The notes beneath the pieces were generated by a model. It saw only the letters and a program-made list of their open reading frames with translations, did not search any database and was not told the DNA's origin. From a virus (Duplodnaviria > Caudoviricetes), in the IMG/VR virus record IMGVR_UViG_3300028594_000178, positions 1-36,047 of that record: DNA of 36,047 nt, one strand, 5' to 3'. Both the position numbers and the translations under genes were made by a program. Positions 4,423 to 27,907 of the stretch are shown piece after piece; the first letter of the stretch is position 1; the number at the start of each line of letters is the position of its first letter.

Positions 4423-5641
4423 GAATATCCTCCTTTGCTCTTACGTGGACCTTTATCTTTTCATCGATATAACCGTTCTCAATTAATGGAGTCTGAACGA
4501 CCTTTTCTTGATCCGTTTGATAAATCGCTCTACCCCATAATTTGGCAGGCAGTTCCTCTGCTCCCCCGCGATCCAAAACAACTGTGGATTGAGTTGCGTT
4601 CTTTAACTTGAAGCAAAGGGCTGCACTTGTATTTGCTTTTACTTGACGAGGAAATACGTCCGCAGTTGGGTACTGTGTTGCGAACACCACTCTATAACCT
4701 AACCCAGCACCGATCCGGGCTATTTCTCCAACTAAATTCAAACAGCGTTCTCTATCATTTTTGTTTACAAATGCTGATATTTCTGCCCCTTCGTCTATTA
4801 CAATAAAGTGCCTTTGCTTGTATCCAGCTTCTGTAATATCCTCATATCCTTCTTTCAAAAACTCCCGCTGTCGGTCCAGCATTTCCGAATGAATCCTCTC
4901 TAAAGCTTTGATTGTTTCCCTTGCATTCTTGGCTACTTCGATAACTTGTTTGCACCTTGCAAAACGGTTGAATGCTAAACCTCCCTTTAAATCGATAAGA
5001 GTAAGCTTCACGTTATCCGGTTGATTGTTTATAAGTGTTGTTATGGCGTTTTTTAAAAATACCGTTTTTCCGTATCTCGTCATGCCAGCGACCACAAGCA
5101 TTTGAAGCTTTTCAAAATCATGAGTAATAAAATCACTGTATGTGTAACCAATCGGCACCTTCCACCCTTTCACTTTGGAGAGCATTTCGTCATTGTATAA
5201 ATACACTTTATCCAACCCTTTTTCATAAACTCTGAATTTCAACATGCCGTCATAATTCATTTCAATCTGTTTATCTAAACTCACACGATTATTAAATAGG
5301 TCTTTTACCTGACTCTTAATATCCCCTTTCCAATCGATTTTTTTAATATTGGCCAGGGTAAAATCTGATTCACTCTTATTATTTAGTCCATCAATAAATA
5401 GCTGTTTATGATCGACAAATTGCTGGAATGATAATCCCAACGGAATCTTATAAACGTATTCAGCATAGTTTTTTCTTCTTGATTTTCGATAAATCCTAAT
5501 GCTTCCCTCTTTTGTTTTTAATCCGGCAGCATCTGCAATTTTCATTATCTTTTCATGATCGTTGGAAGATGATCTATTTTGAAAATAATAAGTTGATCCA
5601 GCTATCGCGGCCATACTTAATGTAGATAAAATCTCAAACAA
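4358..5641 (-). CDS. FtsK/SpoIIIE-family ATPase
   Basis: Walker A GMTRYGKT, IDLKGG, Walker B FIVIDE, ATQYP; N-terminal hydrophobic anchor; RBS AGAGGGGG suits a TTG start at 5641. Confidence 0.9.
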   Translation of the reverse strand: MFEILSTLSMAAIAGSTYYFQNRSSSNDHEKIMKIADAAGLKTKEGSIRIYRKSRRKNYAEYVYKIPLGLSFQQFVDHKQLFIDGLNNKSESDFTLANIKKIDWKGDIKSQVKDLFNNRVSLDKQIEMNYDGMLKFRVYEKGLDKVYLYNDEMLSKVKGWKVPIGYTYSDFITHDFEKLQMLVVAGMTRYGKTVFLKNAITTLINNQPDNVKLTLIDLKGGLAFNRFARCKQVIEVAKNARETIKALERIHSEMLDRQREFLKEGYEDITEAGYKQRHFIVIDEGAEISAFVNKNDRERCLNLVGEIARIGAGLGYRVVFATQYPTADVFPRQVKANTSAALCFKLKNATQSTVVLDRGGAEELPAKLWGRAIYQTDQEKVVQTPLIENGYIDEKIKVHVRAKEDIHDRAAKEDRTTGPHTTFFEEA

Positions 5642-5905: not shown

Positions 5906-6112
5906 ATGGAGTTAAAAAGCCGCATATCTTATTGGAGAGACGAAAGAGGAAGAACTAATAAATGGCTTTCCCGGAAATTAAATGTGAGCGAGGAGACATT
6001 GTCTCGGTGGGCTAACAGTAAAAGTTATCCATCTATACATAAATTATTTGAGTTAGCTGAATTGTTGGAATGCAAAGTCGATGACTTATATAAAAGGACT
6101 GATAAAAATTAA
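5906..6112 (+). CDS. XRE-family helix-turn-helix regulator
   Basis: LSRKLNVSEETLSRWANSKSYPS...LAELLECKVDDLY; divergent from the FtsK gene. Confidence 0.9.
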   Translation: MELKSRISYWRDERGRTNKWLSRKLNVSEETLSRWANSKSYPSIHKLFELAELLECKVDDLYKRTDKN

Positions 6113-6245
6113 TGAAGGGATTTACAAGCAGGAACAGGATCTCCTGAAAATGCTGGTCAAAGCAGAAAAGGATTATGAATTGCAGGAGACAATAAAAAGG
6201 CAGATCGAACGAGTAAATAAAACGATGGAAACCCTTGATGCATGA
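6108..6245 (+). CDS. Possible 45-aa helical protein with an ATT start
   Basis: Open frame NEGIYKQEQDLLKMLVKAEKDYELQETIKRQIERVNKTMETLDA after AAAAGGA; ends in a terminator. Confidence 0.35.
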   Translation: MNEGIYKQEQDLLKMLVKAEKDYELQETIKRQIERVNKTMETLDA

Positions 6246-6258
6246 GGGTTTCTTTTTT
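6228..6258 (+). terminator. Intrinsic terminator
   Basis: GAAACCCT...AGGGTTTC followed by T6. Confidence 0.75.
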
Positions 6259-6292
6259 GTGTAAAAATAAATAAAAAACTTCTTATTTCCTG

Positions 6293-6323
6293 TTGACTTA
6301 TCACTAATTAGTGATATAATGTA
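6293..6323 (+). promoter_or_regulatory. SigmaA promoter with palindromic operator, copy 1
   Basis: TTGACT-16 nt-TATAAT with extended TG; perfect 18-bp palindrome TATCACTAATTAGTGATA at 6299-6316. Confidence 0.85.
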
Positions 6324-6354
6324 ATTAACAGATCAAACAAAGGAGTTGGACGGA

Positions 6355-6741
6355 ATGAAAAACATTATGGTAAGAGCTTGGGAGATCGCAAGAGAAGGAC
6401 AAAAGCAATTCGGCGGAAAAGTAAGTGAGTATTTATCAGAAGCACTAAAAATGGCATGGGCTGAAACTAAAGCACCTAAGAAGGTTGAATTTAACACGAC
6501 AGCAGGAAGTCGTAAACATAAGTCTTGGATTGCTGAGATCACCGGTACACACCCTAAGTGGAAGTTGAACCGTGAGTTCATAAACCCTGTAGAAGAAAAT
6601 GACTACTCCGGAAAAACATTTGAATTGGAAAACGGTAAAATTTATGAAGTGTGTGACGCTGGCGACCGTGACTTTGTAGAAGTAATTGACGGCGATGTTT
6701 ACTACATTGAGTATAATGATGTTATGGGCGCTGTTGCGTAA
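6355..6741 (+). CDS. Hypothetical phage protein
   Basis: RBS AAGGAG; first gene after the promoter. Confidence 0.75.
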   Translation: MKNIMVRAWEIAREGQKQFGGKVSEYLSEALKMAWAETKAPKKVEFNTTAGSRKHKSWIAEITGTHPKWKLNREFINPVEENDYSGKTFELENGKIYEVCDAGDRDFVEVIDGDVYYIEYNDVMGAVA

Positions 6742-7736: not shown

Positions 7737-7952
7737 ATGGAATTAAGAACATGGGAAAGAGAAAATTACACGGTAGAAATGATTGAATTTGATCACGATT
7801 TAAAAGCATTTGAGGTTATTCAAGGGGATAAGGTACAGACTATAGCCCCTGCAACAATTGAGGACATGGAAGCTATTATTGAGGATTTAGACAACGGCGA
7901 AGATGTTGACGGTTGGGAAGACGGGGTCGGCAACACAATCGTAATAGAATAA
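7737..7952 (+). CDS. Small acidic hypothetical protein
   Basis: RBS AAGGAG; D/E-rich. Confidence 0.75.
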   Translation: MELRTWERENYTVEMIEFDHDLKAFEVIQGDKVQTIAPATIEDMEAIIEDLDNGEDVDGWEDGVGNTIVIE

Positions 7953-8024
7953 AAGAGGGCAGGCATAAGCCTACCCTCCTCATAAAAGTGTGTACGGTGA
8001 TTATAACATATAGGAGGCTTAATC

Positions 8025-8162
8025 ATGAAATCATTAATATATAAATTACTGCGTATCTCAAATGACATTAATGCAATTCAGAAAGGTAAAGTGGGTAGAA
8101 GAATTGGAAGGCGTGTAGCTGGTAAGGCTACGGGAAGATTGTTTGGTAAGATATTTAAATAA
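8025..8162 (+). CDS. 45-aa cationic peptide (absent from the ORF track)
   Basis: RBS AGGAGG; MKSLIYKLLRISNDINAIQKGKVGRRIGRRVAGKATGRLFGKIFK. Confidence 0.75.
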   Translation: MKSLIYKLLRISNDINAIQKGKVGRRIGRRVAGKATGRLFGKIFK

Positions 8163-8193
8163 AAAACAAGCCCGGGTTTTCCACGCCCGGGCT
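8161..8193 (-). terminator. Terminator of the late/lysis operon
   Basis: AGCCCGGG-loop-CCCGGGCT then TGTTTTTT on the minus strand. Confidence 0.75.
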
Positions 8194-8233
8194 GATACCA
8201 CGGTATTATATACAAAGGTATATTAATTATTAA

Positions 8234-9244
8234 TCAAAATGTTCCTGCGTTCAATTGACGTTGCATTTCTTTTACTGCCGTTGACGGACGACTTAACACC
8301 CCATCTACAGGAGTGCCTAAATAATCTTGTAGTGCCCTTACTGTAGCTGGACCTAACAATCCATCGGCAGACGCCCCTACATAACGTTGTAATACTCTTA
8401 TCACCACACTTCCCCCACTGCCGTAGCGCACTGTATTTCCGTATAATGATTCTGTGACGCTGTTTCGGGATTGGTTGCTGATAATCCCATCAACCGGAGT
8501 GTTTAATGCGTCCTGTAGTGCTTCTGTGGTCGCGTTGCCCCATTTGCCATCCACAGTTAGATCAGCTTGAGAGACAGGTGTTTTACCAGACTGTAACTTA
8601 TTTAACAGCTTGGTGTTTTGGCTTGCTGTGCCCGTATAGTTACTAATCCCATGAGCATTTGCTAGTTTTTTACGATTGTCAAAACTGGAATCTTTTCCAA
8701 TGCTGTTTAGGTAATCAACAACACTACCACCTGTATACGCACTGGTTGATACGCTTGCTACTTTGGATTTAGGCGCACTTTTAACAGTAGTCGCCCCTTT
8801 AACCTCACTCATTCTAAAGTTGCGACCTGGGCAAGTTGTGGCAACTAGATCACCATGTCCAACAATAGCACTCGATCCTAGCCCTAATTCAGACATAAGC
8901 CATGCATTTAATGCTTTTCCGGCCTTGACTTGTGCATCGGTCATTTTCTGATTCTCGAAATTACCTTGGTAACCAATTCCCACAGATGTGGAGTTATGCC
9001 CACGACAATGTGCACCTACATGCCAGCCCCTCCCTTCATAGATGTTGCCGTCGAATGAGATCCAGTAGTTGTAACCCACGCCTGACCAACCATTACCATT
9101 TTTGTGAAAATTATGAACATCATATATATCCCAACTTTCATGTGCCATATGGTGCTGGACAATGTGTCTAATGCGGCTCTTATTAATTGGTGTGCGGTTA
9201 CGAAAGCTTAAACCTGCATTTTTGATGTTTGGCTTTTTGGCCAT
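8234..9244 (-). CDS. Endolysin: Amidase_2 N-acetylmuramoyl-L-alanine amidase with C-terminal cell-wall-binding domains
   Basis: IVQHH, GWSGVGYNY, GAHC, GHGDLVATTCPG; SVVDYL...SSFDNRKKLA module; VDG..G..T..ALQ repeats. Confidence 0.92.
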   Translation of the reverse strand: MAKKPNIKNAGLSFRNRTPINKSRIRHIVQHHMAHESWDIYDVHNFHKNGNGWSGVGYNYWISFDGNIYEGRGWHVGAHCRGHNSTSVGIGYQGNFENQKMTDAQVKAGKALNAWLMSELGLGSSAIVGHGDLVATTCPGRNFRMSEVKGATTVKSAPKSKVASVSTSAYTGGSVVDYLNSIGKDSSFDNRKKLANAHGISNYTGTASQNTKLLNKLQSGKTPVSQADLTVDGKWGNATTEALQDALNTPVDGIISNQSRNSVTESLYGNTVRYGSGGSVVIRVLQRYVGASADGLLGPATVRALQDYLGTPVDGVLSRPSTAVKEMQRQLNAGTF

Positions 9245-19903: not shown

Positions 19904-19920
19904 TTTTCATACCTCCATAT

Positions 19921-19950
19921 AAATAAAAAGAGCAAGAATTAATCCTGCTC
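19921..19950 (-). terminator. Terminator after the major tail gene and its +1 extension
   Basis: GAGCAGGA-loop-TCTTGCTC followed by TTTTTATTT. Confidence 0.7.
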
Positions 19951-19958
19951 CGTATTTG

Positions 19959-20025
19959 TTAATCCCAAATCAATTTAACCGACGTTTCACTAACACCCGC
20001 CCTTAGATTGGCGGGTTTATTAGGG
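19959..20025 (-). CDS. +1 frameshift extension of the major tail protein (Fn3 strands A-B only)
   Basis: CCC-TAA at 20025-20020; the +1 frame reads PNKPANLRAGVSETSVKLIWD-stop. Confidence 0.75.
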
Positions 20026-20625
20026 AGTTTCCGGAGTCCCTTCGCCCGGATAAGTAGTTCCGAAAATAGCTTGGAATAATGCGTCACGTTGAGTTGTTTC
20101 GCCTGCTGGATCGTAAGCAATTAAATAAGTGATTTCTTCGTCTACGCCTTCGATTTTGCGCGGCATAAACTCTCCTGCTGTTTCATTTCCTGTAAACTCG
20201 ATAGACTCACCTTTTGTTTGACCTTCTGTAGTTGCAAGAGTAAAAATTCCTTTAGCAAACCCTAACCATTCTGTTCCACCATCTTCTGCTGTGCGAGCAA
20301 ACACACATGCGACATAAGGAGGGTTCGGCTCAGAAGAAAGTCCATACATGCCATTCACTTCTGTGTATCCGTAAAGTTTAGCCCGATCCTCAATAGGGAT
20401 TTTGTGGAAGGTAGTTGTTAATGTCGTTACATCAGTCGAAACAGCCATTTCTGCCACTGTGTTATCCCCATACGCTTTAGCGATTTCTTGTGGCGTTTCA
20501 ATAGAAATGTTTTGCAAAAATTCGATTCGTTCCGGTGCAGTTTCAACAATTCCTGTTTCTGTATCGCCTAACGCTCCATAGTAAAACTCTTTTAGCCCAG
20601 TAAATGATCTGTAGTTTTTAGCCAT
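20020..20625 (-). CDS. Major tail (tube) protein, phi13-like family
   Basis: TGLKEFYY, YGDN..AE, PPYVACVF, GF.KG.F motifs; position in the tail module. Confidence 0.9.
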   Translation of the reverse strand: MAKNYRSFTGLKEFYYGALGDTETGIVETAPERIEFLQNISIETPQEIAKAYGDNTVAEMAVSTDVTTLTTTFHKIPIEDRAKLYGYTEVNGMYGLSSEPNPPYVACVFARTAEDGGTEWLGFAKGIFTLATTEGQTKGESIEFTGNETAGEFMPRKIEGVDEEITYLIAYDPAGETTQRDALFQAIFGTTYPGEGTPETP

Positions 20626-20668
20626 TACTTAATCACTCCTATTATTTTAGTAATAAAAAAAGACAGCC

Positions 20669-21055
20669 TTATAAGCTGCCTAAATCTGTTCTATATGCTT
20701 TTCCTCGGTATCTGCGAGCATCACGGAAGATGTTGTAATCTTTGTCCCATTCATCTATACCGCCTGATTGTCTAAAACCTAAATCCCACATAATCATACG
20801 AATCCTGTCTGCCAAACCCTTGGTTACAATACGGTTGTTCGACCAAACTTCTATTTGGTACAAATAATCATCTGTGAGCCACGTGTCATCTGCGAAATCA
20901 GCAGCCGTTGGCGTGTCTAATGGATCAATAATGATATGTGGTTCAGTTAAGTTATCTGTTGGCGGATATTCATAATATTTAATCCTTCCGTATGCCTTTT
21001 CTACGATGTAATTGTCATCCATCATTGCATTATAAATTCTAGTCATCATATCCAT
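20669..21055 (-). CDS. Tail terminator/completion protein
   Basis: Synteny; YQIEVWS and DARRYRG motifs. Confidence 0.75.
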   Translation of the reverse strand: MDMMTRIYNAMMDDNYIVEKAYGRIKYYEYPPTDNLTEPHIIIDPLDTPTAADFADDTWLTDDYLYQIEVWSNNRIVTKGLADRIRMIMWDLGFRQSGGIDEWDKDYNIFRDARRYRGKAYRTDLGSL

Positions 21056-21448
21056 TTAAATCGACCTTCCCAACGATCTGCGGATTGCATCTCTATATGC
21101 TTTTTCTGAACTTTTTAGCGCTCTAGCAATCGCCCCTTTACCTCTAGGGTTCGGGTTTTTAACTGTTCCCCATTCGTTTAGATGGATAATCCGATAACGA
21201 TTCTTTGGACCTTTCCAGTGCACCCTAACCGTTCTGACACCATCCATCCAAAATGGTTCAGAAATTGTGATTTCTTCAATAGATGCCCCAGTATCCCTAA
21301 AGGTTTTAAATTGTTGCTTCAATTCTTTTACAAACACTTTCGCGCCCGCAGTTATTGCGGCATCAACTTTATGTTTCATAACAGTTGGACCTAATCGGCG
21401 TTCCAAATCCGCCATTAATTGCTTCTGTCCTCTGACATCTACCTTCAT
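21056..21448 (-). CDS. HK97 gp10-like neck protein
   Basis: DTGAS..EI, RYRIIHLNEWG motifs; synteny. Confidence 0.75.
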   Translation of the reverse strand: MKVDVRGQKQLMADLERRLGPTVMKHKVDAAITAGAKVFVKELKQQFKTFRDTGASIEEITISEPFWMDGVRTVRVHWKGPKNRYRIIHLNEWGTVKNPNPRGKGAIARALKSSEKAYRDAIRRSLGRSI

Positions 21449-21801
21449 GTGGACGCCTCCGCGACTATCTTAATGAAACGCTTGTCTTTGATGTCGGGAT
21501 GTACTTTTTTTATGTTGAATCGGATATACTCACCTTTTTCATCCTTGTACACATCATCCAATACTGACATATAGTGTTTATCCCTAGGCGTGAATTCCCC
21601 ACGGGTATCTCTGATTCGAACAGTGACAGAATGAAACGTTCCGGTGGTGCTTAAAACCTCTAAATCCTTCATAGACGGCTCATAAACTTCTGCCCAGCAC
21701 TCCCACAACTTAGCCTTTTCCACTTCTCCTGGCTCCGGACCGGGTCTTGGTGCATACTCAAAGAACTCCACCCTAGAATTTAACTCTCCCGCACTATTCA
21801 T
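21445..21801 (-). CDS. Head closure (head-tail adaptor) protein
   Basis: GELNSRVEF, CWAEV, IRD motifs; synteny. Confidence 0.8.
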   Translation of the reverse strand: MNSAGELNSRVEFFEYAPRPGPEPGEVEKAKLWECWAEVYEPSMKDLEVLSTTGTFHSVTVRIRDTRGEFTPRDKHYMSVLDDVYKDEKGEYIRFNIKKVHPDIKDKRFIKIVAEAST

Positions 21802-22078
21802 CTTTGTTCACCGCCGGATAATCCTTTAATTTCAGGATTAGAGACTGGATAATACTTTTGTTATCGCCAAGAACCCCGCGTCCTTCGTAGTTTTGGGATA
21901 CAATAGCCTTTACTGCCAATTCATACAAGGGATAATCCTCTTGTGCTTCTGCTCTTTCTGATACACCGGAAGCCCTTAATTCCGAAACGGCAGCGTCAAC
22001 CAGAGATTGGATGACATCGTCCTCAAACGAGCCATCCACTCTGATAAACTTTTTTACTTCTTCTAATGTGATAGACAT
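21794..22078 (-). CDS. Head-tail connector (HK97 gp6 / SPP1 gp15-like)
   Basis: LEEVKKFIRVD..EDD.I..L..AA, Y..R and ILKLK pattern. Confidence 0.88.
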   Translation of the reverse strand: MSITLEEVKKFIRVDGSFEDDVIQSLVDAAVSELRASGVSERAEAQEDYPLYELAVKAIVSQNYEGRGVLGDNKSIIQSLILKLKDYPAVNKDE

Positions 22079-22185
22079 TAATCTTCACCTTCTGCAGAAT
22101 CAATAAGGAGACCAAGCATGTTATCGTCATGGTCTCCATCAATTCTTAAATATTCCTTTGACATTTCAAGCAAATCATCCATCAT
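22078..22185 (-). pseudogene. Truncated second head-tail connector (N-terminal ~35 aa)
   Basis: MMDDLLEMSKEYLRIDGDHDDNMLGLLIDSAEGED-stop parallels the N-terminus of the intact connector. Confidence 0.7.
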
Positions 22186-23057
22186 TGATTCACCTTCTTT
22201 ATCGCTTCAACATACTTACTAGACACTTTGTTTTTGTTAACAAACGAAAAATCGTCATTAAAAGGTGACTTTTTTACATATTTGCCTTTAAAAAACAAAT
22301 CCTTATCATTTTCAGTTACTCCTGCATTGTGCATGATTTTAGTTTTGTTCCAACGCTCGATCGGATCTGTTGCCCAACAAAAATCCAATTCATCAACTAC
22401 TTTAGGACCAATATTGAAATATATCATATTCCAAAGTTGCGCCCACATTTCTGCTGTCCATTTTTGGATATTTGAGTCTAGGTCTTTAAAGTAGTTATAT
22501 AGCTTATTAGAGTCCTCATAAACTTTTTTCCAGTATTCAGCAGTTGGATTTTTGATAAGCCATTGAGCACCACCCGAATTATGATTGATTGTTTCTAGCG
22601 ATTCAACTGTAACCCCAACAATAATAGCCATATCACGCAACACTTGCTCACCATTCGTGCAATTACGGATATAATCAAGATTTAAATAGCCGTTACAGTC
22701 ACTGCAATACCACACATCATTTCTAACAGGCAACCTACGGAAATCTAACTTTTTACGGAAAATGACATCTGAATCCATATAAAAGTACTTGCCCTTTTGT
22801 CTTGATGGATCTTCTTTTAGGTACTGCCACCACAAATAAGGCTTAATACTCGGTATATACGACTTATCTTCTCGTAAATCCTCATACACATGCGTTTCTA
22901 CACCGTATTTATCCTCAAAATACTTAGGAATAGCATCGTCCCACTTTTGAAAAAGCAGAACGATGTTTTTTATCCCATGTGATTTTAAATTAGTTAAGCA
23001 CACGTCCAATTCCCACTTAAACCGATTAGTAGATGGTTGACATAGTACATATTTCAT
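22182..23057 (-). CDS. Putative GT-A glycosyltransferase
   Basis: DxD in YFYMDSDVIF, GGAQW, KWTAEMWA and IMHNAG motifs. Confidence 0.75.
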   Translation of the reverse strand: MKYVLCQPSTNRFKWELDVCLTNLKSHGIKNIVLLFQKWDDAIPKYFEDKYGVETHVYEDLREDKSYIPSIKPYLWWQYLKEDPSRQKGKYFYMDSDVIFRKKLDFRRLPVRNDVWYCSDCNGYLNLDYIRNCTNGEQVLRDMAIIVGVTVESLETINHNSGGAQWLIKNPTAEYWKKVYEDSNKLYNYFKDLDSNIQKWTAEMWAQLWNMIYFNIGPKVVDELDFCWATDPIERWNKTKIMHNAGVTENDKDLFFKGKYVKKSPFNDDFSFVNKNKVSSKYVEAIKKVNQ

Positions 23058-23060
23058 ACG

Positions 23061-23312
23061 TTAGTCCTCACTACTTGTTGTAGTAGTGGTGGTTGTAGGT
23101 GCCGCCGTAGTCGTTGTTGTCGTTGTTGTCGTTGTTGTTGCTTTAGTTTTTACAACCAACTCGTCGCTTAACTCTGACTCACCGTACTCATTTACAGCGC
23201 TAACTTGATACTCATATGTCGTGTCGGATTCAAGCCCTGTATCTGTATATTCTTTTTCTTCAATATCACTAGCAACTTGCTTTCCGTTCCTGTAGATGTT
23301 ATAAGTTACCAA
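23061..23312 (-). CDS. Partial Fn3 protein (strands C-G) with a poly-Thr tail
   Basis: YNIYRNG...YTDTGLESDTTYEYQVSAVN..GES followed by T11-AAP-T7-SSED; own RBS GAAAGGAG 7 nt before TTG. Confidence 0.85.
   Translation of the reverse strand: MVTYNIYRNGKQVASDIEEKEYTDTGLESDTTYEYQVSAVNEYGESELSDELVVKTKATTTTTTTTTTTAAPTTTTTTTSSED
23076..23138 (-). repeat. ACN codon repeat encoding Thr tracts, including (ACAACAACG)x3
   Basis: Read directly from the sequence. Confidence 0.9.
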
Positions 23313-23351
23313 AAAAATTCTCCTTTCTTTATTACTAGCCCTGTTTAAAGG

Positions 23352-23421
23352 CTAGTCCCACGTCAACGTGATAGATGTTTCTGTGGTATCACTAGCCTCT
23401 AAATTTACGGGCTGGTTAGGG
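23352..23421 (-). CDS. +1 frameshift extension of the major capsid protein (Fn3 strands A-B only)
   Basis: GAGGAG-ACA-CCC-TAA; the +1 frame reads PNQPVNLEASDTTETSITLTWD-stop. Confidence 0.8.
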
Positions 23422-24561
23422 TGTCTCCTCATCTACTTCAACGATACGGAACGGGCTGTCCAGGTAGCGTTTTTGGTCATACCAGGCTGTCAGTACGAAC
23501 AAGTAGTTACCTGTGTCTACGTCTTTGTCGGAATCATAGACAATTTGGTCATAGTTGATACGGAAGTAATTAAAGTTTCCGACAATCGGATTAACTGCAT
23601 CATCAGCAAATGTTACAGGCTTTCCTAAAACTTGTTCAGGTTGTGCACTGTAAAAGTCTCGGTTCGTGTTTGCTAATACCTCAATAATGCCCATGTAATC
23701 AGCATAAGTCATTAAGATTTCTGCTCCATCACGGAAATCTTCATGTAAATCAGCAATAGCGGCTTTAATAGCTTTGTATAAATCCTCACCTTGAACTCGT
23801 TTAACGTCTGTTCCGTTATAGAAAGACATATGCTCTAATCCCACTTTTGGAGTTTCGGCTAGTGCATCTTTCTTTTCTTTAGCAGCAAGTCCAGAACGTA
23901 AAGCATTATCTACATAGTTGACTAGTTCTAAGTCAGTTCCGTAGATAACTGTATCAGGAATAACTACCTTAACTTTGAACTTGTTGCGTCCGAACTGTAC
24001 AGTGTCACCTGTTAATTCGATCTCTTTTGCTGTCTCGTTGTCACCGATGAAATCATCATCGTCCAGTTGATAAGAAATTTTAGGCATTTCAAGTCCTTTA
24101 ATGTTGGAGATGCTCGCTAGTTCTCTCAGTTGATTTTTAGCAAACGGTTCATGAACAATGTCTTTTGTCATTGTTTTTGGTAGTAATTTATCTCCACCAG
24201 ATGGGTCTCCTTCTGGAATAGCAATTAACTGTTTAACCTCATTTGAAGGTTGTCTCTTTTCGATAGCAGCACGGATAAATTCAGCTTTAGCTTTCACTGC
24301 TTTTTGTTCTGTGTTCAATCCATCAAAACCTACATCTTTCTTCTGTTGGAATTGTTCCTTTTGCTCAGCCTCCATATTGTCATGCTGCTCCTTAATCACG
24401 TCAAAACGTGCTTGCAAATCTTTTTTAGACTGTTGTAACTTTTGGATATCCTCCATAGATGCAGATGGATCAATTGCTGTTTGTCCTAGTTCTGCCTCAA
24501 CTTTTTGTAATTGTTGTCCGATCGTAGACATGTTTTGTTTTAATTCATAAAGTGTATTCAT
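23416..24561 (-). CDS. Major capsid protein, HK97 fold, with N-terminal coiled-coil delta domain
   Basis: Follows the prohead protease; GGDKLLP, NQLRE and VLGKPV.F motifs. Confidence 0.93.
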   Translation of the reverse strand: MNTLYELKQNMSTIGQQLQKVEAELGQTAIDPSASMEDIQKLQQSKKDLQARFDVIKEQHDNMEAEQKEQFQQKKDVGFDGLNTEQKAVKAKAEFIRAAIEKRQPSNEVKQLIAIPEGDPSGGDKLLPKTMTKDIVHEPFAKNQLRELASISNIKGLEMPKISYQLDDDDFIGDNETAKEIELTGDTVQFGRNKFKVKVVIPDTVIYGTDLELVNYVDNALRSGLAAKEKKDALAETPKVGLEHMSFYNGTDVKRVQGEDLYKAIKAAIADLHEDFRDGAEILMTYADYMGIIEVLANTNRDFYSAQPEQVLGKPVTFADDAVNPIVGNFNYFRINYDQIVYDSDKDVDTGNYLFVLTAWYDQKRYLDSPFRIVEVDEETP

Positions 24562-26587: not shown

Positions 26588-27907
26588 TTAAATTTCCGTA
26601 ATTTCTAACGCACAGTAATCAGGACGCAATCCCGACGTACCGCTTACACCCGTTACTCTTATTTTGAAACCTTGCGTTGTAGCAGGTGTCACGTACGCAA
26701 GTAAAGGTCCTGTTGACGATTCTTTCCAATTCGTGTTAGACAGGTTAACACTCATCCATATCGCTAGATTGTTGTCGGCTACAACCGCGTTACTGTCTGC
26801 GGTCACTAGCCTTAATATCACATATCCCTCTGTTTTTATAGACGCTGTAACAAATACGCGATAAGTCTTTCCTGCTTCAAGAGTAAATACCCCGGAATTA
26901 GCGTCATAAGCTATTCCTTCGCCGCCATACTTTCTATTAAAAATACACGTTGTTCCAACCGTTAACGATTGCTCCGAGCCGGTTCGACGCGCGTATAAAT
27001 ACTGCTTAGGCTTGGATTTAGGCGCATATATAACGCCATTGATCGTTAACTCCCCACTCTCATTTACGCCAAGTTTCGCTAAATCTTCCGCATTATTATG
27101 TTCATGACTTTTCGCTACTGCATCGTCAATCTGCGTTATCGTACTCGAAGGCTTATTCGCCAAGTTCGCATAATCAACGTCATCGAATACGAGTCTTTCA
27201 CCAGCTACCTTAACGACTTTACCGTCTGCTCCCGTATAACTTGACGGTGTGTCTTTTAACGCTGTAAATTCATCGCTAAATGTAAACGCGCCGATAAACT
27301 CCCACATTCCTTTATCTTCGGAATATACGTACATACTACGATTATCATCCCGTGTTTCATCCGTGAGAACGACCGCTAAATCTCCGTTGCTTTTATTGAC
27401 AATTCCGTTTAACTCTGCAAATGATTCGAGTTTACCGATAAATCGCATTCCTGCTGTTACTGATGCAAGCAAATCGTTAATATCATCTATTTGCGTCTGA
27501 ATATTGCCTTCTGTGCCCTCGAGTGCTGTATTCAAGTCAGCTACACCTAGATTTAATCCGTCAATAGACTTGACGAACACCTCGCTACCTCGAACCCCCA
27601 CAGTGACAGCATCGACTTTGTTCTTTAGAAAATCCGGCTCATCATCCGAGAACGTCCGAACCTTTCCTTGTTCCCGCTCAATTTGTTCGGTTACAAAATC
27701 AACAATTCCTTGCACGTCCTCTTTCGTGTTATATCGGTCATCGTGATTGTGTTCGCTTGGCGGGTATGTTTGTGGTTTGTTCGTGACGTTAGCCCAACCT
27801 ACCGAACCGGCTTCGCCTCCGCCACCGCCAATCCCTAGTTCGTCGATATTAGCTATTTTTATTACTTCCACATACTCTTGCCTGTCCTTGTCCCAAACAT
27901 AAGCCAT
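26588..27907 (-). CDS. Fibre-like protein inserted between terL and portal
   Basis: W..VTNKP...PPSEHNHDDRY and Y..LANKP...SHEH fibre motifs; beta-rich C-terminus resembling C1q/BclA-C. Confidence 0.6.
   Translation of the reverse strand: MAYVWDKDRQEYVEVIKIANIDELGIGGGGGEAGSVGWANVTNKPQTYPPSEHNHDDRYNTKEDVQGIVDFVTEQIEREQGKVRTFSDDEPDFLKNKVDAVTVGVRGSEVFVKSIDGLNLGVADLNTALEGTEGNIQTQIDDINDLLASVTAGMRFIGKLESFAELNGIVNKSNGDLAVVLTDETRDDNRSMYVYSEDKGMWEFIGAFTFSDEFTALKDTPSSYTGADGKVVKVAGERLVFDDVDYANLANKPSSTITQIDDAVAKSHEHNNAEDLAKLGVNESGELTINGVIYAPKSKPKQYLYARRTGSEQSLTVGTTCIFNRKYGGEGIAYDANSGVFTLEAGKTYRVFVTASIKTEGYVILRLVTADSNAVVADNNLAIWMSVNLSNTNWKESSTGPLLAYVTPATTQGFKIRVTGVSGTSGLRPDYCALEITEI

Follow-up and report, generated by a model that had tools for sequence, protein, structure and literature searches.

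Short +1-frame tags on the capsid and tail-tube genes of a tailed phage and a separate half-Fn3 gene that may complete them

In the stretch of phage DNA analysed here (the window; 36,047 nucleotides), the major capsid and tail tube genes each end in CCC-TAA, and each is followed in the +1 frame by a short open stretch that resembles strands A and B of an Fn3 domain, while a separate gene begins at strand C and supplies the remainder of the fold. We consider it probable, judging from the sequence, that tags added by ribosomal slippage dock the half-Fn3 protein on both head and tail by strand complementation. At the CCC codon that closes each of the two structural genes, a minority of ribosomes would shift into the +1 frame and so append a tag of 20-21 residues made up of Fn3 strands A and B. 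The 83-aa protein, translated on its own and with only strands C to G of the fold, would fold onto the tag by strand complementation and, once docked, would be displayed on both head and tail. A putative 291-aa transferase would O-glycosylate the poly-Thr tail of this protein, and the frequency of slippage would set the density of the decoration.

All genes in the region lie on the minus strand, to which all coordinates given below refer. The major capsid protein gene (23416..24561; 381 aa) was recognised by Pfam Phage_capsid (1.4e-11) and phrog_10, major head protein (2.2e-55), and the tail tube protein gene (20020..20625; 201 aa) by Pfam Phage_TTP_1 (3.4e-7) and phrog_88, major tail protein (7.5e-44); a megablast search against phages gave no match. 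Both ORFs end in Glu-Thr-Pro, as an initial annotation made from the sequence had stated, with the codons ACA CCC TAA in the capsid gene (23416..23424) and ACT CCC TAA in the tail tube gene (20020..20028), where a +1 shift on CCC is predicted. These are the only two of the 25 long minus-strand ORFs with CCC as terminal codon, and both have it directly before TAA. CCC makes up 19 of the 250 Pro codons in the window (7.6%) and is thus a rare codon, as in the PSA tsh type of +1 site. Slippage at this codon in the window phage is likely, again on sequence grounds.

In Listeria phage PSA, and also in A118 and A500, capsid and tail genes have been described to undergo programmed +1 frameshifting near their stop codons, at the 3' end (PMC5009743, with Zimmer 2003 and Dorscht 2009 cited there as the original PSA frameshift papers). 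The PSA slip site had been given as CCC-UAA in the initial annotation, which needs correction: the sites reported in PMC5009743 are CCC_UGA for the tail gene and ACA_CCC_UCC for the capsid gene, and the PSA record has ACA CCC TGA annotated as ribosomal slippage in the tail gene. PSA is nevertheless like the window phage in that both major virion genes are recoded (putatively so in the window) and in that the tail site reads Thr-Pro-stop. Unlike those of the window, the PSA extensions are not Fn3, consisting of a 24-residue acidic tail on Tsh and of about 47 residues on Cps. We know of no partner half-domain gene in PSA.

The +1 frame of the capsid gene holds a tag of 21 codons (23352..23417) corresponding to Fn3 strands A and B, which ends in Trp-Asp and is closed directly by TAG (23352-23354), and that of the tail tube gene a similar A-B-like tag of 20 codons (19959..20021), also ending in Trp-Asp and closed directly by TAA (19959-19961); translation confirmed both peptides as originally quoted, including their halt right after Trp-Asp. 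Taken alone, the capsid tag matches positions 2-21 of Pfam fn3 with an E of 0.01, below the cut-off, and it aligns with residues 1-22 of continuous +1-frame Fn3 domains. By itself the tail-tube tag is not matched by any Pfam profile, even with E relaxed to 10, and it aligns with nine other tags; single tags match Pfam fn3 in 4 of 10 cases. An open +1 frame of at least 19 codons is found in 9 of the 25 long ORFs of the window; openness over some 20 codons is in itself unremarkable, and it is the Fn3 likeness and the conservation of the tags that exceed chance. Capsid and tail tags are more similar within a genome (identity 0.569) than across genomes (0.454), and none of 20000 shuffles reached 0.569, in a test that ignores the relatedness of the genomes.

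The gene of the 83-aa protein (23061..23312) matches Pfam fn3 positions 39-82 of 84 with 26.9 bits. Its product begins at strand C (Y-N-I-Y-R-N-G), with strands C to G at about residues 1-57 and a poly-Thr tail at about residues 58-83, and the gene has its own Shine-Dalgarno sequence (AAAGGAG, 23320..23326) 7 nt before a TTG start, so that its first description as a separate gene with its own ribosome-binding site, a strand-C start and a poly-Thr end stands. All 10 database homologs of the half also begin at strand C and end in poly-Thr. A search with a half-Fn3 profile among 1.84 billion representatives was dominated by giant multi-Fn3 proteins, all of the best 150 matches being 737-7602 aa long, and carries no information on AB-less forms.

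No single polypeptide in the window holds the seven strands, the half covering profile positions 39-82 and the tag 2-21, and no whole Ig-like domain is contiguous in the shifted frame, since both +1 frames end after strand B. Read through the stop, on the other hand, tag and half together match Pfam fn3 positions 2-82 of 84 with 51 bits (cut-off 25), and when aligned to three Fn3 domains that are continuous in the +1 frame, they lack only the B-C loop of 3-7 residues. The coverage of the profile by the two pieces is thus complementary, the acceptor lacking strands as in strand complementation. In the standard Fn3 topology, one sheet has three strands, of which A and B are two, and the core Trp comes with them; the half would presumably be unable to fold alone, because it is without these two strands and the Trp. 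Modelled by AF2 from its single sequence, without an alignment, the stop-read-through chain had a pLDDT of 47 and a pTM of 0.37, values too low for the model to bear on the pairing.

The layout of a tag on the capsid, a tag on the tail and a half-Fn3 gene is found again in some 20 further records of phages or prophages, a number that does not count independent lineages, since several loci belong to one record or to near-identical phages. In the 23 sources scanned, CCC-stop ends 37 ORFs of at least 90 aa, and every one of these is a capsid or tail-tube gene whose +1 frame encodes an Fn3 A-B peptide; the +1 frame is thus kept as coding sequence, as in a programmed +1 shift. The context is ACN-CCC-stop in 34 of the 37, and the +1 peptide stops 0-3 residues past the Trp in 36. 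Both tags are present in 16 of the 23 sources; four further genomes with both were L104 with L097, Bacillus phage vB_BpsS-140 and two MAG contigs. The half gene of vB_BpsS-140 (BpsS140_00021) encodes 66 aa. At the 19 loci analysed, the half gene starts 20-57 nt past the tag stop, always with a Shine-Dalgarno sequence and ATG or TTG; relative to the tag its frame is 0 in 8 loci, 1 in 4 and 2 in 7, and 1-4 stops separate the two. Across the relatives the half carries different cargo: poly-Thr, a single Big_2-like domain or two of them, or nothing. The survey proposed at the outset thus found what it was to look for, CCC-stop tags together with AB-less Fn3 genes whose cargo varies. There are departures from the layout: in L122 the tag is in frame on a tail-tube-like protein, without a frameshift, and there is no capsid tag, and L119 and L121 have no tail tag within 6 kb downstream. 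One homolog bears both a five-strand half and a two-strand tag. In Mimir87, a collagen-like protein goes together with short tags of an unrelated family that lack likeness to Fn3.

Capsid tag and 83-aa ORF share one frame in the window, with a single TAG between them, a point absent from the initial annotation, and four relatives (L007, L009, L124 and Bacillus phage PfEFR-4) have an undivided Fn3 in the +1 frame. Both facts would fit a frameshift-appended whole Fn3 that was broken by a nonsense TAG, the tail tag being a second remnant. The initial annotation had named continuous homologs as a sign of such recent decay; they do exist, but the split is not recent decay, because it persists across capsid families and whichever of the three relative frames the half gene is in, and the half gene has a Shine-Dalgarno sequence and a start codon of its own. 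For 36 of 37 ORFs the break is found at one and the same loop, 11 of 19 loci have the half gene in a frame other than that of the tag, as many as 4 stops separate the two, the homologs of the half start uniformly at strand C, and tags that have diverged to 41-73% identity are still open. We regard decay as very improbable.

The region between capsid and half gene also holds a conserved RNA stem-loop, predicted at 23338..23412, which brackets the capsid tag-coding region: its 5' arm begins 3 nt past the capsid TAA and its 3' arm spans the tag stop and the following non-coding bases. Its MFE has a z of -3.18, with none of 200 shuffles equally stable. In the consensus fold of 16 loci, 88.2% of cells are paired, against 79.7% when shuffled (0/500) and 28-54% when slid, figures that come from predicting and counting on one alignment; the 5' arm of the stem-loop is also under coding constraint. 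A 3' RNA structure is likewise described for the PSA capsid site (PMC5009743). The stem-loop would be a stimulator of slippage, an attenuator of read-on transcription, or both. On the tail side, a G+C-rich hairpin is predicted 4 nt past the tail-tube TAA (19995..20016), the fold of this region (19905-20030) having a z of -4.24 with none of 200 shuffles equally stable, and a consensus scan found a terminator-like hairpin with a T-run directly past the tail tag (19929..19951).

A stop codon within a hairpin, followed by a Shine-Dalgarno-like sequence, recalls T4 gene 60, in which ribosomes hop over such an arrangement. Together with the shared frame and single TAG, it could suggest a covalent capsid-Fn3-poly-Thr chain, made by read-through of TAG or by hopping over the hairpin. 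TAG, however, is an ordinary stop in the window, where it terminates 3 of the 25 long ORFs, and its reassignment was rejected on that count. Moreover, tag and half differ in frame in 11 of the 19 loci, and 2-4 stops lie between them in 11 loci; no matching take-off and landing codons were seen by eye in the intergenic sequences of the window, L120 and L111; and no half follows the tail tag. Covalent fusion is, in our view, even harder to credit than decay.

It can also be the case that tags and half-Fn3 protein are both real and do not dock. The tags could act alone, for example as a beta-hairpin that strengthens lattice contacts or binds a host surface, and the AB-less protein could associate with itself, or could get to the virion in some other way or not at all. 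Where no Fn3 half is present, short +1 tags unlike Fn3 do occur on capsid and tail genes, namely in Mimir87, on PSA tsh and at 12 of 22 capsid loci examined. Tag and half, by contrast, together make up exactly one Fn3, minus the B-C loop only; the half gene was present in four of five tag-bearing records searched, the fifth being a 4.2-kb fragment; and a continuous Fn3 stands at the same place in relatives. We therefore consider the absence of docking unlikely, and infer docking by strand complementation as the best reading.

The ORF next after that of the 83-aa protein (22182..23057) encodes a 291-aa protein of phrog_4417 (1.2e-148), a family whose function is unannotated. Its AF2 model (pLDDT 95.2) matches WbbM, the UGGT catalytic domain, glycogenin and LgtC in Foldseek (E 5e-8 to 2e-6, TM about 0.5), which indicates a GT-A fold, and D95 and D97 of a D-x-D motif are invariant in 37 sequences. 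By sequence it could not be placed among GT8-like GT-A transferases: it has no Pfam match even at E 10 and no PDB sequence match below E 0.7, and its named homologs are all 'hypothetical'. The glycosyltransferase label initially given to this gene is thus upheld by the fold and the motif and not by any sequence family. A lead to HPAT, carried by 10% of one neighbouring atlas cluster, found no confirmation in Pfam. In all 8 loci that hold it, the GT-fold gene sits after a gene ending in poly-Thr/Ser, the tail being carried by the capsid, the tail tube or the half-Fn3 protein depending on the locus. The 291-aa protein is predicted to be the O-glycosyltransferase for the poly-Thr tail, and the display protein is probably coated with glycans. 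Glycosyltransferases of mycobacteriophages have been described to modify capsid and tail-tube subunits (Freeman et al. 2023, as stated in PMC10877033). The present case differs in the host phylum and in the presumed acceptor, a poly-Thr tail on a dockable adaptor; in the relatives mentioned, the presumed poly-Thr acceptor may instead be directly on the capsid or tail tube.

Frameshift-appended Ig-like domains on phage structural proteins were reported by Fraser et al. 2006 (cited in PMC5009743). In SPP1, a frameshift adds an Fn3 to a fraction of the tail-tube subunits (gp17.1*, 3:1; PMC7666168). The SPP1 domain is a whole Fn3 in cis, whereas in the window only A and B are in cis and the remainder is a separate gene common to head and tail. 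The four relatives with an undivided domain are like SPP1, but they append the whole Fn3 to the capsid.

Completion of an Ig-like fold by one or more partner strands is the basis of donor-strand complementation in chaperone-usher pili, of engineered FN3 fragment complementation and of SpyTag/SpyCatcher. These involve one strand or are man-made, whereas the tag of the window has two strands, is natural and would be delivered by recoding. We know of none of the three that is delivered by recoding or that decorates virions. No description of the split-Fn3 arrangement was found in literature searches or in PMC13370021, PMC12917162 and PMC6375668.

A more general reading, for and against which we see about equal chances, is that a two-strand Fn3 'plug' delivered by recoding is a plug-and-socket device for any cargo with a five-strand 'socket', and that the principle extends beyond Fn3. 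The plug would sit on head and tail subunits in a proportion that can be tuned; the cargos seen would be adhesin-like Big_2 domains, bare Fn3 and, together with a transferase for them, mucin-like brushes of glycans; and the cargo cassettes would be exchanged by recombination at the intergenic hairpin. A homolog with both socket and plug could chain or close on itself, and the Mimir87 tags with their collagen-like protein may hint at the wider principle.

Frameshift extensions and Ig-like decorations of phages have so far been known only as whole domains in cis. If one domain is indeed divided in nature between a recoded tag and a freely made protein, this would account for many short unannotated +1 extensions on capsid and tail genes of Gram-positive phages and for orphan 'hypothetical' genes that start mid-Fn3, and phage display and nanoparticle engineering would gain a small, non-covalent pair of tag and catcher. 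The idea can be tested directly, since an isolated phage, Bacillus phage vB_BpsS-140, has the system. The cassette of poly-Thr tail and GT-fold gene would, if true, extend virion glycosylation to phages of Bacillota. Moreover, the frequency of slippage would set how densely a single gene decorates two different lattices, and the surface cargo could be exchanged while the essential structural genes are left untouched.

According to ORF, Pfam and phrog assignments, the minus strand here carries a head-to-tail module of the standard siphophage kind. A Clp-type protease gene is followed, in this order, by the genes of the major capsid protein (23416-24561), an 83-aa protein (23061-23312) and a 291-aa protein (22182-23057), then by a connector, a head-completion and two further head-tail genes, the tail tube gene (20020-20625) and the genes of the tail assembly chaperone and the tape measure protein. 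Translation bore out the initial annotation: the capsid gene ends in ACA CCC TAA and the tail tube gene in ACT CCC TAA, both proteins have Glu-Thr-Pro as their C-terminus, and +1 reading from each CCC gives two peptides (hereafter, tags), each with a stop straight after Trp-Asp. Among the 25 long minus-strand ORFs of the window, in which CCC represents 19 of 250 proline codons, only these two are CCC-terminated. A 439-aa ORF (26588-27907, minus strand), Gly-rich in one stretch, lies just before the portal gene and looks fibre- or decoration-like; this position is unusual for such a protein.

The 83-aa protein matches positions 39-82 of the 84 positions of the Pfam fn3 profile (26.9 bits). For the capsid tag by itself, the match spans positions 2-21 with an E value of 0.01, which falls short of the cut-off, as is expected of only 22 residues, and the tag plus the 83-aa protein, with the stop read through, match positions 2-82 with 51 bits. 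When aligned with three undivided Fn3 relatives encoded in the +1 frame of capsid genes, the tag corresponds to residues 1-22, which extend as far as the conserved Trp-Asp; after this come a B-C loop of 3-7 residues and then directly the start of the 83-aa protein. Since the standard Fn3 topology consists of sheets A-B-E and C'-C-F-G, in the free 83-aa protein (half-Fn3) one sheet is left with a single strand out of three, and the core tryptophan is absent. The tail tag of the window rendered no match in a Pfam scan when taken alone; in an alignment, it has the Pro, Pro, Leu, Leu and Trp that are invariant among the tags.

Capsid tag and 83-aa ORF share a frame in the window, with a single TAG between them. 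The distance from the tag stop to the start of the half gene is 20-57 nt in 19 loci; there the half gene has an SD sequence and an ATG or TTG start, its frame relative to the tag is 0 in eight loci, +1 in four and +2 in seven, and 1-4 stops intervene. The ten database homologs of the 83-aa protein all have strand C as their first strand. Decay of a whole Fn3, considered in the initial annotation as a recent event that could account for the split, was rejected on the basis of these varied frames, intervening stops, SD sequences with start codons and strand-C starts. A second recoding event leading from the tag into the half was likewise rejected, given the differing frames and the intervening stops, TAG being an ordinary stop in the window. 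A variant was observed in locus L122, where a tail-tube-like protein (7924-8601) bears an A-B tag fused in frame, with no CCC-stop, and an AB-less Fn3 plus Big_2-like gene is present (5992-6426), the capsid tag being absent. Frameshifting would thus be a route for dosing the tag, not a requirement.

The co-occurrence of CCC-stop tags and AB-less Fn3 genes with varied cargo, for which a survey had been proposed, was indeed found. A scan of ORFs of at least 90 aa in the window and the comparison loci L105-L126 (23 sources) rendered 37 CCC-stop ORFs, every one of them a capsid or tail-tube ORF whose +1 frame opens with an Fn3 A strand. This frame ends 0-3 residues past the Trp in 36 of them, the sole exception (L124) continuing into a whole Fn3. 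The codon preceding CCC is ACN in 34, and the stop is TAA in 32, TGA in three and TAG in two. Both tags are present in 16 of the 23 sources, and also in four further genomes, namely L104 with L097, Bacillus phage vB_BpsS-140 and two MAG contigs, one Pseudogracilibacillus and one Clostridium-labelled. A profile built from six half-Fn3 proteins matched 26 loci, and the system is borne by at least three capsid types (that of the window, a 415-aa one in L005 and, in vB_BpsS-140, one that is phage-250-like). Locus counts do not equal independent lineages, since some loci belong to the same record (L105/L005, L111/L010, L117/L082/L103, L120/L006) or are near-identical (L116/L117, L105/L107). Identity between capsid and tail tags is 0.569 within genomes and 0.454 across them (a difference reached by 0 of 20000 shuffles; 17 genomes, no correction for relatedness), consistent with gene conversion or with a partner common to both tags.

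Homologs with other arrangements were also observed. Bacillus phage PfEFR-4 (L131, KX227757) has an unannotated whole Fn3 in the +1 frame past its capsid ACA CCC TAA (1366-1645 of the locus); tblastn matches were likewise found in unannotated sequence of PfEFR-5, vB_BceS-MY192 and vB_BanS-A16R4, and under 'hypothetical protein' in a record named Stenotrophomonas phage TS-12. The database homolog P0011 (85 aa) combines a five-strand half with an A-B tag of its own, which is attached at the C-terminus through an acidic linker of 12 residues and ends in Trp-Ser. Such a protein could close on itself as a circular permutant, or serve as a unit chaining head to tail.

Of 75 capsid-homolog loci, 22 were examined. 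The same split as in the window was found in two (L006, L010), a continuous +1-frame Fn3 in two (L007, L009), and an acidic +1 peptide in one; four lack either a CCC-stop or a conserved +1 peptide. Twelve, with capsid homologs of 54-60% identity (L014-L016, L054, L066-L070, L075-L077), have a different, conserved +1 peptide of 19-20 residues ending in S-A-E and no half-Fn3 gene after the capsid gene; the tail-tube gene of L014 does not end in CCC. The remaining one (L008) has a peptide of the kind seen in Virgibacillus phage Mimir87 (L003, MK560763; minus strand), whose capsid and tail-tube genes end near 4980 and 2620, both in ACT CCC TAA, with two similar +1 peptides of 17-18 residues without likeness to Fn3; its capsid gene is followed by one annotated as collagen-like. 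These peptides may belong to a second family of tags, whose partner would be another one. Among 20 tail-tube homolog loci, three have an A-B tag ending in Trp-Asp and two an in-frame poly-Thr/Ser end.

With respect to the slip site, the record of Listeria phage PSA has ribosomal slippage annotated at ACA CCC TGA in a tail gene. According to the review PMC5009743, the tail genes of PSA, A118 and A500 undergo a +1 shift at CCC_UGA, and the PSA capsid gene does so at ACA_CCC_UCC, where there is a pseudoknot. The context in the window is of the same kind. The 126 nt past each window slip site form a much more stable fold than shuffled sequences do (z of -3.18 and -4.24; none of 200 shuffles as stable in either case). 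The capsid-site stem-loop is common to 16 loci, its 5' arm starting 3 nt past the stop, inside A-strand codons, and its 3' arm comprising the tag stop codon and non-coding bases beyond. On the same alignment from which the structure was predicted, and with one arm coding, 88.2% of stem-loop cells are paired vs 79.7% in shuffles, and 23 vs 7.9 cells are changed on both sides (0 of 500 in both cases); sliding the partner by 1-3 columns leaves only 28-54% pairing. Since a T-run follows the stem in several loci, the stem-loop may also attenuate transcription past the capsid gene.

The cargo behind the half-Fn3 is poly-Thr in the window, in L106, L109 and L134, and in P0003-P0010 and P0012; by labels assigned by eye, it is one Big_2-like domain in most loci and two in L111 and L118. 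The half-Fn3 of vB_BpsS-140 has only a short acidic tail. The 291-aa protein, a member of phrog_4417 (without annotated function), had no match in Pfam, NCBI names or PDB sequences. Its model, built from an alignment with 36 homologs in which D95 and D97 are invariant (pLDDT 95.2), gave Foldseek matches to WbbM, the UGGT catalytic domain, glycogenin, LgtC and alpha-1,3-GalT (E 5e-8 to 2e-6, TM ~0.5), so that the predicted fold matches the retaining GT-A glycosyltransferase type. Homologs of this putative transferase are encoded in 8 of 136 loci, the window included, and in all eight the gene directly upstream ends in poly-Thr/Ser, the tail being on the tail tube in three (phiFL1A, L084, L091), on the capsid in one (Enterococcus phage 4995_1) and on the half-Fn3 in four. 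Mainly because of this adjacency, the tail is the predicted acceptor, and we infer that the enzyme glycosylates it. The closest counterparts of the window capsid and capsid tag are in L120 (96% and 86%), those of its half-Fn3, poly-Thr and transferase in L106 and L109 (76% and 64%; 84% and 82%). This comparison of the window, around 23310-23354, with the three loci suggests an exchange of cargo cassettes by recombination near the intergenic hairpin.

The sequence architecture, its conservation and the complementarity of tag and half are established, and the finding is real, conserved and beyond chance. The best reading of the predicted system, which we consider quite probable, is that a minority of ribosomes would slip +1 on the terminal CCC, tagged subunits would co-assemble into head and tube, and the free half-Fn3, whose tail would probably be glycosylated, would complete its own fold on the exposed tag, the dose being set by slip frequency and a weak TTG start. 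The window system would thus combine donor-strand complementation, a known principle, with paired +1 frameshifts of the PSA type and with the appending of Ig-like domains by frameshift, as in SPP1, where gp17.1* occurs at 3:1 with gp17.1 (PMC7666168); in systems of the SPP1 kind, unlike here, a whole domain is appended in cis. The literature searched, with subscription journals outside its scope, yielded no account of phages with a split Fn3, and the vB_BpsS-140 genome paper mentions neither frameshift nor fibronectin. The window adds a mucin-like poly-Thr cargo with a dedicated enzyme of predicted GT-A fold and a conserved RNA stem-loop around the capsid tag, and the analysis further adds an in-frame tag variant and an isolated phage, vB_BpsS-140, in which the idea can be tested.
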